Below are positions 2,158-32,000 of a stretch of DNA of 32,000 nucleotides, in pieces. The notes beneath the pieces were generated by a model. That model saw only the letters and a list, made by a program, of their open reading frames with translations, did no database searches and was not told the origin of the DNA. How positions within the stretch are numbered: position 1 is the first letter of the stretch; every line of letters starts with the position of its first letter. Both the position numbers and the translations under genes were made by a program. Origin of the DNA: Propionibacteriaceae bacterium (lineage in GTDB: Bacteria > Actinomycetota > Actinomycetes > Propionibacteriales > Propionibacteriaceae); the NCBI GenBank assembly GCA_031256725.1, contig JAIRQE010000015.1, positions 90,001 through 122,000 on the forward strand, written 5' to 3'.

Positions 2158-2170
2158 GGCCGCGGAGAGT

Positions 2171-2280
2171 GGAGTACATCTGTTCCAAACACATTCGCGC
2201 AGTTGTTTTCCCTTAGGGGAAAGCAACTCCTCCATTCGCTGGGTTTGGAATAGATGTACCCCACCCTCCGCTTGGGTGGG
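2171..2280 (+). repeat. Intergenic structured repeat, family 1, copy A (full length)
   Basis: Aligns over about 110 nt with 19347-19455 and over its 3' part with 10559-10636 and 24390-24458. Core is AGTTGTTT..-loop-..AAGCAACTCCTCC. Outer helix is 2174-2190 with 2243-2259. Terminal hairpin is CCCACCC/GGGTGGG at 2260-2280. Confidence 0.8.
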
Positions 2281-2283
2281 CTG

Positions 2284-5442: not shown

Positions 5443-5464
5443 TCCCATCCCCTAATCTTCTAAG

Positions 5465-5509
5465 AGCCTGTCGGGAGTACATATGCTACTCCTGACAGGC
5501 TTCTTGTTT
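5465..5509 (+). terminator. Rho-independent terminator after the lipoprotein gene
   Basis: 15-bp stem AGCCTGTCGGGAGTA (5465-5479) with TACTCCTGACAGGCT (5487-5501), containing one G-T pair. Loop is 7 nt, followed by TCTTGTTT. It lies 22 nt after the stop. Confidence 0.75.
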
Positions 5510-5556: not shown

Positions 5557-5585
5557 TTGACAGATTGCGGTTTTTTGGCTAGAAT
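5557..5585 (+). promoter_or_regulatory. Sigma-70-type promoter upstream of the ArsB/NhaD-like permease
   Basis: TTGACA (5557-5562), a 17-nt spacer, then TAGAAT (5580-5585). This predicts a leader of about 140 nt before GTG 5732. Confidence 0.55.
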
Positions 5586-10558: not shown

Positions 10559-10636
10559 CAGTTGTTTCCTTTGGAAACAACTCCTCCGTTCGGGGGGACA
10601 GTTTGAGACAGATGTACCCCACCCTCCGCTTGGTGG
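10559..10636 (+). repeat. Intergenic structured repeat, family 1, copy B (5'-truncated)
   Basis: AGTTGTTTCC-TTT-GGAAACAACTCCTCCGTTCGG...AGATGTACCCCACCCTCCGCTTGG. Positions 10610-10633 are identical to 2252-2275 of copy A. Confidence 0.8.
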
Positions 10637-10744
10637 CTACTAACCCGAAATGACTCATGAATGCTTGCACGCTTAGAGAAATGTCAGTGATGGATGAGTC
10701 ATAATGGGTAGTGCGACCAGCGATATTTCTCGAAGGGAGATGGC

Positions 10745-14821: not shown

Positions 14822-16456
14822 ATGATATTCCCCGGAAACCAGGAATCCACTACACTTAGGTATACGAATGTTGTGAACGGAAATACTATGAGTTCCTTTG
14901 ATCCCGAGAATCCTATGTCGTACTCTAGGCCCCTGGATGGTATTCAACCCCCATATCCAGGAGAGATACCCCCGTGGGAGACCACTTCTCCCAGCCCTGA
15001 GGCTCCCCCGTGGGCTGCGGAAGTACCACCTCCTCCAGTTGAGGCTCCCGCATGGGCGCCTGCTTCAGCGGGCCCAGCACCCTGGGAGGTTCCTGCGACC
15101 CCTCCAATGGCGGTACAAGATCAGGTAGCCACACCAGAGCCCTATGGTGCTCCAGAGGCCGCACAGGTACCCCCGTGGGCAGTCCCCGCATCCCCTGAAC
15201 CCAATGTGCCCGAAACTCCCTGGACTCGACCATCTCCCGAACCTAGTGTGCCTGAAACTCCATGGACTCAACCTACCGATTCACAGGTATCCCCATGGGC
15301 TGCTGAGATTCCAGAGCCAACTCTTGATCCAACTGCCTACCAACCTTCGGTTGAGGTACCCGTGGCTCAGGATTATCCGCCAGTTGTACCATCATGGGAG
15401 GTGCCCTCTCCTGATCCTGTGGCCACACCAACAGACTTCCCACTAGTAGAGTCGGGATGGGGCGCGCAGCCTGGTATCCCCCCAATGGAGCCAGGGATTT
15501 CTTCGGTACCCTCAATGGATCTGGGGCCCATCCCTCCATTGGAAATGCCAGTCAGTGATCTGGGGTCTGTACCTTCCACGAATCCCATGGAGGCCTATCA
15601 GCCACCAGTATCATGGGAGGCATCCGTCGCTAATCCTACGATTACTCCACAGTGGGCTTCCGAGGTACCCGTCGTTCCCCAGGTAGCAGTTGAGGTACCC
15701 CAGGTACCCGAGATGCCCCATGTTCCTGAAGTTCCTCAGGTACCTGAGGTTCCCCAGGTACCCCAGTGGAGTCCCGGAAACGAATCAGAGGTCCCAGGAT
15801 TCGTCAGTCAAGCACCCGTGGAGCAGACACCTCCATTCGTGGTGGAGGTACCACCCCCCTGGGCTTCCGAGGTACCAACTGAGGTACCACCTGCATGGGC
15901 TTCCACCCAAGCTCAGCCACCTGCAGCGCCACCATGGGCACTCCCGGCAGACGAGGTGCCATCAGTACAGCCGCCAACTCCAGTACAGCAGCCTCTCCAG
16001 TGGCAGGCCGACCAAACTCAGGTCCCCTATTTAGGTCAGCCTGGTCAGTACCCGCCTATGGGTCAGCCTCCAACTGTGGGTTATGCTCAGCCAAAGATGG
16101 ATCTGGGGTTTCCAACTGCACCTGGTGGTGGGTACCAGCCCTATGATCCGGAGGCTCGGTATGCTCCGGTACCCGTACACGGCAAACTCATTCAGCCCTA
16201 TGCGACCTTGCCACATGAGAAGAATGGGATCTGTATCGCATCCATGGTTCTTGGAATAGTGTCCATCGTGACCTGTTTGGGTTTCATTACGGGTATCCCT
16301 GCGATTATCTTGGGTGCCCAGGGCCAAAAGTGGGCCGCTCAGGGCCGTGCGACGAATAAGTCGATGGCCACTGCCGGTCTGATCATGGGTGTCATTGGTA
16401 CTGTTCTTGCAGGAGCCATGTGGTACGTCGCAAGCGTGTTTCCTTATTACTTCTGA
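14822..16456 (+). CDS. proline-rich repeat protein with C-terminal DUF4190 membrane domain
   Basis: 544 aa. 17 Trp residues, nearly all in P/A/S-W-A/E/T context. C-terminus ICIASMVLGIVSIVTCLGFITGIPAIILGAQG...AGLIMGVIGTVL matches the DUF4190 pattern. Start is uncertain (ATG 14822 or 14888). Confidence 0.7.
   Translation: MIFPGNQESTTLRYTNVVNGNTMSSFDPENPMSYSRPLDGIQPPYPGEIPPWETTSPSPEAPPWAAEVPPPPVEAPAWAPASAGPAPWEVPATPPMAVQDQVATPEPYGAPEAAQVPPWAVPASPEPNVPETPWTRPSPEPSVPETPWTQPTDSQVSPWAAEIPEPTLDPTAYQPSVEVPVAQDYPPVVPSWEVPSPDPVATPTDFPLVESGWGAQPGIPPMEPGISSVPSMDLGPIPPLEMPVSDLGSVPSTNPMEAYQPPVSWEASVANPTITPQWASEVPVVPQVAVEVPQVPEMPHVPEVPQVPEVPQVPQWSPGNESEVPGFVSQAPVEQTPPFVVEVPPPWASEVPTEVPPAWASTQAQPPAAPPWALPADEVPSVQPPTPVQQPLQWQADQTQVPYLGQPGQYPPMGQPPTVGYAQPKMDLGFPTAPGGGYQPYDPEARYAPVPVHGKLIQPYATLPHEKNGICIASMVLGIVSIVTCLGFITGIPAIILGAQGQKWAAQGRATNKSMATAGLIMGVIGTVLAGAMWYVASVFPYYF
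15695..15766 (+). repeat. Eight tandem 9-bp (Val/Met-Pro-X) units inside the proline-rich gene
   Basis: GTACCCCAG GTACCCGAG ATGCCCCAT GTTCCTGAA GTTCCTCAG GTACCTGAG GTTCCCCAG GTACCCCAG, in frame (VPQVPEMPHVPEVPQVPEVPQVPQ). Confidence 0.85.
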
Positions 16457-16473: not shown

Positions 16474-16565
16474 GGGTGTCAGGGGACGTATCTCCTGACA
16501 CTCTGATTTCAAGACATCCTGGCACATCATCCTCAAAGTGCCAGGAGATACGTCCCCTGACACCC
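16474..16565. mobile_element. MITE-like palindromic element, family 2, copy 1 (92 bp)
   Basis: Perfect 24-bp terminal inverted repeats: GGGTGTCAGGGGACGTATCTCCTG (16474-16497) and CAGGAGATACGTCCCCTGACACCC (16542-16565). No coding capacity. A second copy lies at 19494-19584. Confidence 0.75.
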
Positions 16566-19178: not shown

Positions 19179-19346
19179 TTTGTCGACTTATCGTTCCTGA
19201 CTTCTTGGTACTTGGAGGGTTGGGTACAAGAAATTCACCAATAGTACATGGGGACAGACGGAACCACCGTTAAAGTCACGTTGCTTGGGTGCACAAGGGA
19301 CTTCACTCAGTACTGTGGGACGGACCTATAACCATTGGGATCACGT

Positions 19347-19455
19347 GGAGTGTATATCTATATAACGCACTTGCGCAGTTGTTTCTCGAAGGAAACAACT
19401 CCTCCGTTCGGGAAGACGGTTCACAACAGATATACCCTACCCTCCACGTCGACGT
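19347..19455 (+). repeat. Intergenic structured repeat, family 1, copy C (full length)
   Basis: GGAGTGTATATCT...GCGCAGTTGTTTC-TCGAAG-GAAACAACTCCTCCGTTCGGGAAGACGGTTCACAACAGATATACCC. Collinear with copy A. Confidence 0.8.
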
Positions 19456-19493: not shown

Positions 19494-19584
19494 GGGTGTC
19501 AGGGGACGTATCTCGGACACTCGGAACGCAGGACATCCTGGCACATATCATCCTCAGAGTCAGGAGATACGTCCCCTGACACCC
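19494..19584. mobile_element. MITE-like palindromic element, family 2, copy 2 (91 bp)
   Basis: Same termini as 16474-16565, with a 2-nt deletion in the left arm (..GTATCTC--GGACAC). The internal segment CATCCTGGCACAT..CATCCTCA is conserved. Confidence 0.75.
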
Positions 19585-24389: not shown

Positions 24390-24458
24390 GGAAACAACTC
24401 CTCCGTTCGGGAGAACGGTTCGCAACAGATATACCCCACCCTGCTCTTGTCGTTGGGT
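24390..24458 (+). repeat. Intergenic structured repeat, family 1, copy D (5'-truncated)
   Basis: GAAACAACTCCTCCGTTCGGGAGAACGGTTCGCAACAGATATACCCCACCCT. Lacks the 5' arm of the inner hairpin and the outer 5' arm. Confidence 0.8.
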
Positions 24459-27159: not shown

Positions 27160-27232
27160 GCGCCTGTAGCTTAATGGATAGAGCATCTGACTACGGATCA
27201 GAAGGTTGGGGGTTCGACTCCCTCCAGGCGCG
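27160..27232 (+). tRNA. tRNA-Arg (anticodon ACG)
   Basis: Hand-folded cloverleaf. Acceptor GCGCCTG/CAGGCGC, D-arm GCTT..GAGC, anticodon stem TCTGA/TCAGA with loop CTACGGA, T-arm GGGGG-TTCGACT-CCCTC, discriminator G. CCA is not encoded. Confidence 0.9.
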
Positions 27233-27535
27233 CAGATTATGACGGCCCACTTCAATCGGCAGTACGACGGGGACATAACGCCCTTGCTCATCCACTGTTG
27301 GCATGATAGTAGTTAAATCAACTGAGAAGAATTCAACTACTTTGTAGATATCTTTGATGCTCCACGAGATTTTCCCGCTCAGTTTTCCACCCATTGCATG
27401 TGGTCCAACTCCAAGTGCTTCGCCTAGCTCTATGCGAGTAGTTTTACTTCTGAACATGAGCTGATTAACGGTCTCTGAGATGGCATGGTCAGGCGCATAA
27501 ACGGGATCAATTTCAATCGGTCTGGGTCTAGCCAT
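27191..27535 (-). CDS. XRE-family HTH regulator (cI-like repressor candidate)
   Basis: MARPRP...VNQLMFRSKTTRIELGEALGVGPHAMGGKLSGKISWSIKDIYKVVEFFSV fits the HTH_XRE pattern. The last 14 codons read into the tRNA-Arg 3' half (27191-27232). The track start at 27604 is rejected. Confidence 0.6.
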   Translation of the reverse strand: MARPRPIEIDPVYAPDHAISETVNQLMFRSKTTRIELGEALGVGPHAMGGKLSGKISWSIKDIYKVVEFFSVDLTTIMPTVDEQGRYVPVVLPIEVGRHNLRAWRESNPQPSDP

Positions 27536-27757: not shown

Positions 27758-27994
27758 ATGGACGGTGGTCACATGATTCGCCCTTCGCAAGCGGCCAAAA
27801 TTGTGGGAGTTCATTATCGAACAATGATGAAATGGATACATGGTGGATTAGCTCCGCATTCTCGGTTGCCGAACGGATTTTATCGAATTGATGAGAGGTG
27901 GGCTAGGAGCCAGGTAGTACCCGGTTTAGGAATCCTAGTCGATGCTGGCCGATGTTCTTCGGATACTTCCACGGGGTTAACTGATGTCTCTTGA
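27758..27994 (+). CDS. excisionase-family / MerR-like helix-turn-helix DNA-binding protein
   Basis: 78 aa. IRPSQAAKIVGVHYRTMMKWIHGGLAPHSRLPNGFYRIDERW matches the HTH_17/Xis pattern. It overlaps the next gene start. Confidence 0.65.
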   Translation: MDGGHMIRPSQAAKIVGVHYRTMMKWIHGGLAPHSRLPNGFYRIDERWARSQVVPGLGILVDAGRCSSDTSTGLTDVS

Positions 27995-29042
27995 AGCTAC
28001 TGGGTGGGCCTGGAATCAGACGGGGTTGAATACCTCGCAGAAAATTGTTTTGTTGGCCTTGGCTGATCAGGTCCGTTCTGCGGAGTCTGGGTGTTTTCCG
28101 ATGGTGTCGTCGTTGATGGCGAAGAGTGAGTTATCTAAGACGAGTGTTATCAGGGCGATCAGAGAGTTGGAGGCTCGTGGTTTGGTTGCGGCTTTTCCTT
28201 TACCGAGTCGTCATGGTGGGAGGCAGCATGCGAATTACTATTTGTTGGCTATTCATGGTGATTTAGATGTGAGTCGTATTGATTTAGACCGGGTGTATCG
28301 GTTGATTGAGAGGTCTGAGTTAACGGATCACGATCCCGAGTATTCCGCTTCTGTGAATAATAATGCCACCGAAATGATGGGTACCGCTGGCGACATGGGT
28401 ACCGCTAGCGGTACCCATGTCAATTTGACACCCATGGTTGACAAGGGGAAACAGGGTATGGGTACCGCTGGCGACACCCATACCGCGGACGACATGGGTA
28501 CCGCTGGCGATAGGGGTATGGGTACCGCTGGCGACACCCATCTATATAAGGAATTAACCAGGAATTTAAAACCTAACCTAACCGGTGTTGGTGAGGTTGG
28601 GTCGGGTGTGGATTTGAATGTGGTGTGGGAATGTTTACCTGCACGGTGGGGGGAGCATTTAGATTCGTCTGGGCTGCAGGTTGTGGGTCACCACTTGGCG
28701 GGGTTATTGGATGCTGGGTGGACTCCCCAGAGGATTCGATGTGTGCTGGAATCTAATCCGTTGCCGGAATCTCCAAAATCGTGGGTGGGTTTGATATCTC
28801 ATCGGGTGAAGGGTGTTCCTGCTGTCCCACCTCGTCTGGCTCAATCTGAGGCACCACGGTTACGGGTGGTGGAGGCTCCAGTGGTTCCTGACCCGTTGTG
28901 GGTTCAGGTTATGCGTACTGCGAAGGCTGCGGGTGAACTGGTGCCAGCTCCGTTTAGTCCTCGGTTTGGTGAGTGGTTGAAAGACCGTGACCAGGGTGCG
29001 TGGGAAGTGTGGTTGGCTGAGTCATCGGGGGAGGCTGCATGA
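27984..29042 (+). CDS. replication-initiator-like protein with N-terminal winged HTH (HTH_36-type)
   Basis: WAWNQTGLNTSQKIVLLALADQVRSAESGCFPMVSSLMAKSELSKTSVIRAIRELEARGLV is the typical phage/plasmid replication HTH pattern. A central repeat linker (MGTAGD x5) separates it from the C-terminal domain. Confidence 0.6.
   Translation: MSLEATGWAWNQTGLNTSQKIVLLALADQVRSAESGCFPMVSSLMAKSELSKTSVIRAIRELEARGLVAAFPLPSRHGGRQHANYYLLAIHGDLDVSRIDLDRVYRLIERSELTDHDPEYSASVNNNATEMMGTAGDMGTASGTHVNLTPMVDKGKQGMGTAGDTHTADDMGTAGDRGMGTAGDTHLYKELTRNLKPNLTGVGEVGSGVDLNVVWECLPARWGEHLDSSGLQVVGHHLAGLLDAGWTPQRIRCVLESNPLPESPKSWVGLISHRVKGVPAVPPRLAQSEAPRLRVVEAPVVPDPLWVQVMRTAKAAGELVPAPFSPRFGEWLKDRDQGAWEVWLAESSGEAA
28377..28541 (+). 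repeat. Iteron-like repeats inside the rep-like gene (candidate origin)
   Basis: ATGGGTACCGCTGGCGA occurs exactly at 28377, 28458, 28494 and 28518. A 24-bp perfect palindrome ATGGGTACCGCTAGCGGTACCCAT lies at 28395-28418. A 28-bp perfect direct repeat lies at 28454-28481 and 28514-28541. An AT-rich stretch follows at 28541-28580. Confidence 0.7.
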
Positions 29043-30240: not shown

Positions 30241-32000
30241 ATGTATACCTCGTCAATGTGGAGAAGGAAGCTCCATCGCAACCGACCTTGTGTCGGTTTT
30301 ATGGGCAGGGTAGCCGCTTTTACTCTGTCTATTGCTCTGATTGGGATGATCGCTCCGACAGCTGTTGCTGTCGAGGTTGGCAACCGTGCGTATGGTTATA
30401 GTGTGAGTTGGAGTGGTGGGAAAATTGGTCGTTACGATGGGATGTGGATTGGATCCTATTGGACTGACATGGGTGAGGCATTTTGTGTGACTCCTCGTGG
30501 TACATCACCAACTAACGGTACTGGTTCGGGTGCGTGGTGGCTGGATGGGTGGTCGAACCAGGAGGGTGAGCAGATGACCACTCAGCAGTTGGCTCAGGCC
30601 GCGTTTCTGGCGTATTCGTATACGCAGTGGGAATCCAACCCACAAAATGCAGCTATCATTAAGTTGGCGTTGTTGAGTGTGTTGGGTTTGGATAACGCTG
30701 AGGTGTATGGGGCTAATGGTGCTCGTGCTAATTTTGATGTCCGAGTTCCTGGCAGTGATGGTCGTATTATTGCGGACCAGTTGGGTCTGACCAGTGTGAT
30801 TTTGGATTGGATTGCGCGCGCGCAGGCGCGGGCATCGACGTGGAATGGTGTCACGTCGGGGACGAAACATAACTTGAATGAGATTCGTTATCCGGGCGAC
30901 ACTATTAACTATGAGGTGAATTTTCCGGGTATTCCTGCCGGCTATGATGTCTTTTGGACTATCACGAAACCGGATGGTGCTACGGTGTCGGTCACGACAC
31001 AAACTAATGCTAGTGGTACTGCTGCGTTGGAGTGGGATACTCTCCCGGATCTACTTGGGGAGTATAAGGTGAAGTGGCAGATTTTGAATGTTCCACCTCG
31101 TATTCCTTTAGCGTTTTATGGGCCTGGTCGGCCCGCACAGTTGTTGTATATTGCTGTACCGGACACAGGACGGAAAGAGGACCCAGATAAGGTTTCATTC
31201 ATCCATGATGGTGAGTTGGGTATTGAGACCCAGATTTCTGATCAGGCTGCTGAACCGGGGTCCACGATTACTGATACAGTCAGGGCGACTGGTTTAGTGC
31301 CTATGGTGTATGGAAAGTCTGTGTCGTGGAAGTTCACGGGATCGATTTTTAAGACTGCACCTGATAGTTATGGTTCGTGTCAGGAAGCGGATTGGTCTAC
31401 GGGTAAAGCTGAGCAGGTTCATTCGTTTACAGAGCCGGTTCCTGCTGCGTCGATTGTTGATTATGCGGTTGAGATGACGATGGGATCGTATATGATCCCG
31501 GTGATGCACCCTGCGACGTGTTACACGTATCAGGTCAAACTGCATGGCACATATGATGGTATGAATGAGGATCTATCGGTATCGCATGAGTTGGGTATGA
31601 CGACAGAGACAACACTTGTTCGTAGTGATTTACCTGTGGTGACCTCAGCGGTGTCGAATCAGTCTGCGAATCCTGGTGAAACAATCACGGACACTGTCGA
31701 GATTACGAATATTACATTGAGGTCGGGTGTGACGTGGACACTGACGGGTACGCTCGTGGAAGCGGTCCCGGTTGATGGGGCATGTAGCAAGGTGGACTGG
31801 GGTAAGGGCACTCCAGTGAAAACGTATGAGACTGTGGTGACTGCGGCCCGGGTGTCGAATAAGACAGCGATACTATCTGGTTTGGGTGGATATGTGATTC
31901 CGAATCTACAGGAACAGATGTGCTACTCGTATGGGGCCACATTGACTGTGGTGGGTGCGGATGTGGATGTGACAGTGGAGCATCCGGTGGGTCATCCGAC
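30241..32000 (+). CDS. secreted/surface repeat protein, 3' partial (possible thioester-domain plus Ig-like repeat adhesin)
   Basis: Frame 1 is open from ATG 30241 to the window end (586 codons read by hand). It is absent from the ORF track because no stop is reached. Signal peptide is RVAAFTLSIALIGMIAPTAVAVEV. Modules of about 110 aa repeat, each starting ..PG(S/E)TITDTV... The start could be 30256 or 30301. Confidence 0.65.
   Translation, partial: MYTSSMWRRKLHRNRPCVGFMGRVAAFTLSIALIGMIAPTAVAVEVGNRAYGYSVSWSGGKIGRYDGMWIGSYWTDMGEAFCVTPRGTSPTNGTGSGAWWLDGWSNQEGEQMTTQQLAQAAFLAYSYTQWESNPQNAAIIKLALLSVLGLDNAEVYGANGARANFDVRVPGSDGRIIADQLGLTSVILDWIARAQARASTWNGVTSGTKHNLNEIRYPGDTINYEVNFPGIPAGYDVFWTITKPDGATVSVTTQTNASGTAALEWDTLPDLLGEYKVKWQILNVPPRIPLAFYGPGRPAQLLYIAVPDTGRKEDPDKVSFIHDGELGIETQISDQAAEPGSTITDTVRATGLVPMVYGKSVSWKFTGSIFKTAPDSYGSCQEADWSTGKAEQVHSFTEPVPAASIVDYAVEMTMGSYMIPVMHPATCYTYQVKLHGTYDGMNEDLSVSHELGMTTETTLVRSDLPVVTSAVSNQSANPGETITDTVEITNITLRSGVTWTLTGTLVEAVPVDGACSKVDWGKGTPVKTYETVVTAARVSNKTAILSGLGGYVIPNLQEQMCYSYGATLTVVGADVDVTVEHPVGHP

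Follow-up and report, generated by a model that had tools for sequence, protein, structure and literature searches.

Between the genes of one 32,000-nucleotide stretch of a metagenome-assembled Propionibacteriaceae genome (the whole of it is called the window here), four related non-coding sequences recur, all on the + strand. The question they raise is whether such short, hairpin-prone repeats, collectively family 1 (copies A to D), are RNA modules kept by selection for the structure of their transcripts, as a previous sequence-only reading had proposed, or mobile DNA bounded by inverted ends. Family 1 is read here, with a probability of roughly 0.6, as an old and lineage-specific family of MITE-like (or REPIN-like) elements.

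Detection and extent of the repeat family

The four copies lie where the sequence-only reading had placed them, in intergenic DNA and on the + strand, as motif, repeat, nhmmer and ORF checks agree. The core 14-mer GAAACAACTCCTCC, with up to 2 mismatches allowed, is matched four times against 0.29 matches expected, a count that 0 of 100 shuffles reached; the 3′ motif AGATRTACCCYACCCT has four exact + strand matches in the window; a repeat search of the window lists family 1 first among its direct-repeat families (D1); and a profile built on the four copies finds each of them by nhmmer with E values between 1e-23 and 1e-28. In the window this profile detected nothing beyond A-D except reverse-strand self-matches, which arise because the copies are palindromic. 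A fifth copy was found neither in the window by a covariance model with its filters disabled, nor in an extra 5 kb upstream of it.

The copies range in length from 64 to 122 bp and in G+C content from ~53 to 56% (window, ~54%). Pairwise identity amounts to 69-85% over the shared ~60 nt, and to 64% between A and C over their full length. Two subfamilies, A/B and C/D, can be distinguished, and both the 24-mer reported for the former and the motif reported for the latter are correct. The claim that these sequences form a genuine family, dispersed between genes and able to fold into hairpins, is confirmed.

Table 1. Coordinates of the repeat copies, their parts and their neighbouring genes (positions in the window).
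Feature	Position	Strand	Description
Copy A	2162-2283	+	full length, ~122 bp
A, left inverted arm	2162-2193		GCGGAGAGTGGAGTACATCTGTTCCAAACACA
A, right inverted arm	2240-2271		reverse complement GCGGAGGGTGGGGTACATCTATTCCAAACCCA
A, inner hairpin	2201-2212 / 2213-2216 / 2217-2228		5′ arm / loop / 3′ arm
A, CTCCTCC	2227-2233		
A, neighbours	2157; 2299		ABC permease gene stop, 4 nt before; sortase ATG, 15 nt after
Copy B	10559-10641	+	left inverted arm missing
B, inner hairpin	10560-10569 / 10573-10582		loop TTT
B, CTCCTCC	10581-10587		
B, right arm	10610-10629		AGATGTACCCCACCCTCCGC; tail to 10641
B, neighbours	10745 (ATG)		YkuD gene stop 116 nt before; DUF2510 gene ATG 103 nt after
Copy C	19343-19449	+	full length, ends decayed
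C, left end	19343-19350 + 19352-19359		ACGTGGAG + GTATATCT
C, right end	19428-19435 + 19442-19449		AGATATAC + CTCCACGT, pairing with left end
C, inner hairpin	19377-19385 / loop / 19392-19400		
C, CTCCTCC	19399-19405		
C, neighbours			ABC exporter gene 163 nt before; GHMP kinase gene 174 nt after
Copy D	24390-24453	+	right-hand ~64 nt only
D, neighbours	24268 (start); 24503 (ATG)	-; +	argS, divergent; M18 aminopeptidase gene, 49 nt after
Family 2, copy 1	16474-16565		~92 nt; 33-nt arms, 94% complementary (GGGTGTCAGGGGACGTATCTCCTGACACTC...)
Family 2, copy 2	19494-19584		~92 nt; 33-nt arms, 94% complementary (GGGTGTCAGGGGACGTATCTCCTGACACTC...)

Anatomy of the copies

Copy A is bounded by two inverted arms of 32 nt each, which are 88% complementary; only one inverted repeat in the window is longer. 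The outer helix described earlier for this copy does pair; it is not a unit of 17 bp, however, but the inner part of these longer arms. The right arms of A, B, C and D can be aligned with one another as well as with the left arm of A, and define a terminal inverted repeat of ~30 bp with the consensus, from outer to inner, GGAGGGTGGGGTAYATCTGTT..AAAC (family 1 end sequence, GGAGGGTGGGGTAYATCT). A and B continue alike for ~12 nt beyond the right arm (CTTGGGTGGGCT / CTTGGTGGCT), the tail of A to 2283 being A/B-specific. In C the inverted ends comprise 8+8 bp; the left arm is interrupted by a 5-nt gap and carries ~4 uncompensated changes in its inner part. The flanks of the two full-length copies (GC/GC for A, ACGT/ACGT for C) are palindromic, of unequal length and possibly inverted-repeat sequence themselves; B and D are truncated.

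Between the ends lies an inner hairpin, followed by a CTCCTCC that is invariant in all four copies. The stem of this hairpin had been taken to be the same throughout with only the loop differing, which is correct for B and C (AGTTGTTTCC/GGAAACAACT, 10 bp) but not for A, where a stem of different sequence (AGTTGTTTTCCC/GGGAAAGCAACT) has 12 bp, including one T.G pair. D starts exactly at the 3′ arm of the hairpin (GGAAACAACT) and is devoid of the 5′ arm and the loop, so that no inner hairpin can form there; B and D do lack 5′ sequence, as had been noticed, but in D the missing part amounts to ~60 nt rather than 35-45. Divergence is uneven along the element: the right half is present in 4/4 copies, the left half is lost or decayed, and B, C and D have an identical 22-nt block (GGAAACAACTCCTCCGTTCGGG; permutation P ~0.01-0.025). 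The inverted doublet is present in A only, where the arms are separated by a 46-nt spacer with its own hairpin; taken alone, an arm of family 1 folds, by inspection, into no more than a 6-bp hairpin that includes 2 wobbles.

Genomic context and coding status

The ORF downstream of each copy opens with the earliest start codon that follows an in-frame stop, and therefore no gene can extend into an element; the ORF lengths equal those of the public annotation for the sortase, the DUF2510 protein, the M18 peptidase and the ABC transporter upstream of C. Each of the four copies has the same direction as the gene that follows (1/16 by chance), the distance to the start codon ranges from 15 to 174 nt, and the genes concerned (sortase, DUF2510, GHMP kinase and M18 peptidase) are functionally unrelated. 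The cumulative GC skew of the window rises, all copies being on the G-rich strand. The window lies on a 141,148-bp contig of a MAG whose annotated proteins include MDR0488762-MDR0488783.

A coding role for the repeat itself was rejected, given that none of the six frames is conserved between copies and that indels are present. Over B and D, long ORFs on the minus strand are in different frames, and a short ATG-led ORF exists in A and B but not in C and D, which have ATA for ATG. A 70-aa ORF predicted by a public gene caller (P0035; 10446-10658, minus strand) runs antisense through copy B and is almost certainly an artefact of gene calling that the repeat gave rise to.

RNA structure or DNA inverted repeat

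The helices had been interpreted as selected RNA structure, a claim that is not supported by the folding of A on either strand, by the gap and uncompensated changes of C or by the covariation statistics. Copy A folds equally well as + and - RNA (z of -6.25 and -6.39, respectively), with a very stable hairpin (-59 kcal/mol), and C behaves similarly (z of -3.7 and -3.3 on the two strands); B folds better on the + strand (-2.8) than on the - strand (-0.7), and D has z ~0 on both. The three transition mismatches between the arms of A would give 1 G.U and 2 A.C oppositions in the + RNA and 2 G.U and 1 A.C in the - RNA, i.e. no preference for a strand. The C-G to T-A double change that distinguishes the outer repeats of A and C is real and the only one there, and matching changes in both ends would also be expected of transposon ends bound by one transposase. 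The outer ‘helix’ of A is a DNA-level terminal inverted repeat. For the inner hairpin, one double change was found, a level of covariation reached by 332 of 500 shuffles in a test that, with four sequences, has low power.

No Rfam match was obtained at A-D even at E<=5, in agreement with the sequence-only reading, which had recognised no RNA family in them, and at gathering score the window yields tRNA-Arg only. The absence of a T-tract is likewise borne out, since no + strand T-tract terminator occurs in the four copy regions. In three copies, pairing is possible between the C-rich right end and a stretch of G-rich sequence close by, namely CCCACCC/GGGTGGG in A (2262-2268 with 2276-2282), CCACC/GGTGG in B and TACCCCA/TGGGTA in D. 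None of the copies contains a sigma-70-like promoter, and ECF-type GGAAC...GTT spacing and the actinobacterial TANNNT box were not found in them by eye, so that promoters were rejected as the main explanation. A minus-strand terminator (TCTTCC-CGAAC-GGAGGA followed by GTTGTTTCC) was discarded as well, as no minus-strand gene ends there, and so were a retron, a group II intron and an IS200/605 omega-RNA, for which there is no Rfam signal and no adjacent RT or TnpB gene.

Distribution outside the window

A two-motif pattern had no match in 185,579 species genomes, JGI metagenomes and IMG/VR. The 19-mer GAAACAACTCCTCCGTTCG gave three matches in metagenomes, all dismissed as chance hits in unrelated, low-GC and apparently coding DNA. 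The nearest species representative, a Propionibacteriaceae MAG (isolate Lab288P4bin79), shares 76% ArgRS identity with this organism. The argS loci of 80 related genomes were collected, and in the 20-kb argS loci of the eight closest (argS at <=76% amino acid identity) nhmmer and the covariance model detected no copy; in the nearest relative (L002) gene order differs at 4/4 sites. With the six-frame translation of the element as protein query no match was retrieved, and when a profile of the minus-frame peptide was compared with 1.84 billion representatives, the sole matches were the ORF over B in the window itself and one unrelated repeat protein. Plasmid-collection searches with blastn found no match to an IS end, and the window encodes no transposase, RAYTs and Y1 transposases included. 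Logan contigs L082 and L084, which belong to an independent assembly of this organism, end and start inside the hairpin of B, a weak hint that the repeat also occurs elsewhere.

A probable MITE-like element family

The interpretation in terms of RNA overlooked that the element is built with terminal inverted repeats, an architecture indicative of a MITE-like element. The copies are non-coding and shorter than 500 bp, A and C have terminal inverted repeats, and four copies are dispersed over 32 kb. The MITE-like reading is favoured by their being short, dispersed and strictly intergenic, by the complementarity of the terminal arms of A, by the strand-symmetric folding of A and C, by the match of all right arms to each other and to the left arm of A, and by the mixture of full-length and end-truncated copies. 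The lack of an Rfam match and of any functional relation among the downstream genes agrees with it, and the absence of homologues from relatives and collections fits a lineage-specific selfish element and not a conserved RNA. The reading is further strengthened by family 2, likewise palindromic, which shares these intergenic regions (see below). Against it stand the lack of a consistent target-site duplication, the absence of a transposase from the window and of IS end matches from the plasmid collection, the small number of copies (n=4), the uneven divergence, with its invariant 22-nt block and a right half that is always kept, the co-orientation of 4/4 copies with the downstream gene, and a G+C content of ~53-56%, which is not AT-rich.

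The architecture and dispersal of the copies are observed; the history that would account for them may be drawn as follows. An intact element would consist of ~110-120 bp, with ~30-bp terminal inverted repeats around a core that contains a 10-12 bp hairpin. Family 1 would be a non-autonomous, type II MITE-like element, whose two ends would be recognised by a transposase encoded elsewhere in the genome that inserted the copies into intergenic DNA, the copies having since diverged to 64-85% identity. The left halves of B and D were presumably deleted, long palindromes being unstable, with the breakpoint of D at the apex of the hairpin. When RNA polymerase reads through, the transcripts would fold into long hairpins, which could incidentally affect the stability or processing of mRNA 3′ ends.

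Comparison with known repeat systems

Family 1 resembles type II MITEs in its size (<500 bp), its lack of coding capacity, its ~30-bp terminal inverted repeats, its intergenic position, the stable stem-loop that its transcript would form and the presence of truncated copies or copies without terminal inverted repeats. It differs in that no target-site duplication is seen and no parent IS is known, as well as in its G+C content (53-56%, MITEs being typically AT-rich) and in that only four copies are seen, which are 64-85% identical. The Correia elements of Neisseria (CREE/NEMIS) are another intergenic family, of 100-155 bp with 26-bp inverted ends, which are co-transcribed with their neighbours into long hairpins, with possible changes in processing and expression; they have a TA duplication and an IHF site and occur in hundreds of near-identical copies in either orientation. 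Family 1 is similar to them in size, inverted ends and intergenic location, with no similarity in sequence. REPINs are reportedly extragenic inverted doublets mobilised by RAYTs, which form a long hairpin, leave no target duplication and decay to singlets. The arms of family 1, in contrast, are not palindromic units, and no RAYT is seen in the window. Among actinobacterial repeats, the mycobacterial MIRUs are said to be intergenic, 40-100 bp long and oriented with the flanking genes. MIRUs are tandem and lack inverted ends, and their small ORFs overlap the stop and start codons of the neighbours, whereas family 1 forms no tandem array and has a short ORF in A and B only.

Prokaryotic MITE families (e.g. 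QMITE2 of Coxiella and Chunjie of Geobacter) also mix full-length and truncated copies, some copies of QMITE2 being devoid of ~40 nt at the 5′ end, and the direct repeats of MITEs wane with age (PMC10969869). In Streptococcus pneumoniae, BOX, RUP and SPRITE are MITE-type families bunched in the same intergenic regions (PMC10969869). A literature search found no paper that describes MITEs or REPINs in Propionibacteriaceae.

Alternative explanations

That family 1 is a cis-acting or small RNA module under selection on the + strand, the element possibly being a co-opted MITE, is unlikely. The conserved 3′ half (3′ arm of the hairpin, CUCCUCC and ...ACCCCACCCUCC) would then act in a 5′ leader or as an anti-Shine-Dalgarno RNA, as might be suspected from the common orientation of copies and downstream genes, the retention of the right half with the 22-nt block of B, C and D and the CTCCTCC of all four, the survival of the inner hairpin (with one double change) despite different loops, the better folding of B on the + strand and the pairing of the C-rich right end in A, B and D. 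Such a module would have to work, however, at variable distances from the start codons of unrelated genes and, in D, with a perfect 3′ arm and no hairpin; moreover, A and C are equally foldable on both strands, covariation is indistinguishable from that of shuffled alignments, Rfam gave no match and the sequence is not conserved beyond this genome in the relatives and collections scanned. Co-option of the right half as a lineage-specific RNA module (hairpin 3′ arm, CUCCUCC and ACCCCACCCUCC tract) is, as a separate claim, decidedly doubtful. Mobilisation as a REP/REPIN, i.e. as two inverted units that pair into a hairpin when the DNA is single-stranded and that a RAYT (an IS200/IS605-like Y1 transposase) moves, is quite improbable. 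B and D would be decayed singlets, and the strand bias would follow the direction of replication. The poor palindromes formed by the arms, the window without a gene for a RAYT or Y1 transposase, a spacer of 46 nt that, with its own hairpin, exceeds that of typical REPINs, and the fact that RAYTs are mainly reported in Proteobacteria weigh against this scheme, for which the inverted-doublet architecture of A, the lack of target-site duplications, the singlet-like truncated copies, the restriction of all copies to the G-rich strand in a window of rising skew and the co-resident family 2, whose arms are hairpins themselves, can be adduced.

It is very improbable that the copies are hairpins without a T-tract that end transcription or stabilise the mRNA of upstream + strand genes, having spread like SPRITE or REP. 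D has neither a hairpin nor a co-oriented gene upstream, no + strand T-tract is present, the genome uses a hairpin with a T-rich tail elsewhere (at 5464-5502), and ~60 nt are conserved beyond the stem that termination would not need; A, B and C do follow co-oriented genes, by 4, 116 and 163 nt, and the stability of the A hairpin would suit this function. The least probable reading, and a highly doubtful one, is that of an operator or array of binding sites for a DNA-binding protein, or of an outward-facing promoter within the repeat. The conservation of sequence blocks independently of the hairpin and the position of the copies upstream of genes speak for such sites, but the 60-nt conserved tract far exceeds the length of an operator, the neighbouring genes are unrelated, and the copies have no sigma-70-like promoter and, by eye, no ECF-type spacing.

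Significance

If family 1 is MITE-like, it is one more lineage-specific selfish repeat family, here in an uncultured lineage of Propionibacteriaceae, and of modest practical value: the assembly break may be due to it, it could serve as a marker for strain typing, and it advises caution before such hairpins are named riboswitches or sRNAs. Overall, it looks like a fairly ordinary kind of feature. A larger significance would arise only if the CTCCTCC-bearing right half were a co-opted regulatory module, in which case unrelated genes could come under joint control of translation or transcript stability through a C-rich sequence, an anti-Shine-Dalgarno leader or sRNA-like, that transposition had spread.

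A second repeat family and other features of the window

In both copies of family 2 each arm is itself a hairpin, i.e. the arrangement is a REPIN-like inverted doublet, and this family fits the REP/REPIN architecture better than family 1 does. One of the two lies ~40 nt downstream of copy C, and the genome carries several clustered palindromic repeat families. A 20-mer from the family 2 arm is absent from IMG/VR. A common origin of the family 1 ends and the family 2 arms was considered and not supported, the similarity between them not being significant (p 0.07-0.57).

Just after the Septum_form gene, at 5464-5502, a 16-bp hairpin is followed by a T-rich tail and then by a strong sigma-70-like promoter (TTGACA-17-TAGAAT, 5557-5585). 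The stem of this hairpin (TGTCGGGAGTAC...CTCCTGACA) resembles an arm of family 2 (p=0.003) and has GGAGTACAT in common with the left end of family 1 (p=0.006, uncorrected for 25 tests); it may be a repeat singlet that acts as a terminator. Between copy B and the DUF2510 gene, at 10643-10709, there is a 16-nt inverted repeat (ACCCGAAATGACTCAT / ATGAGTCATAATGGGT); it could serve as an operator or form a hairpin in the leader, independently of family 1.

A tRNA-Arg(ACG) gene at 27160-27233 is followed, to at least position 32000, by genes of the type found in integrated elements, which encode an HTH_17 excisionase-like protein, an HTH_36 protein, two products without family match and a surface protein with T-Q ester bonds; no integrase gene was found in the window. 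Independent Logan contigs break within this tRNA gene (L001 ends at ~27205 and L083 starts at 27234), pointing to an att duplication or to presence/absence polymorphism. Inside the HTH_36 ORF (27984-29042), the segment 28373-28541 is dense in direct and inverted repeats of ATGGGTACCGCTGGCGACA, with a perfect 30-nt palindrome at 28392-28421. It has the appearance of iterons or of an origin, and the ORF would then be a replication-initiator-like gene of the integrated element. Finally, the ORF at 14822-16456 encodes a proline-rich protein of 544 aa, with short repeats of the PEVPQVP type, a membrane segment at the C-terminus and no match in Pfam, and accounts for the direct-repeat families D3-D5.
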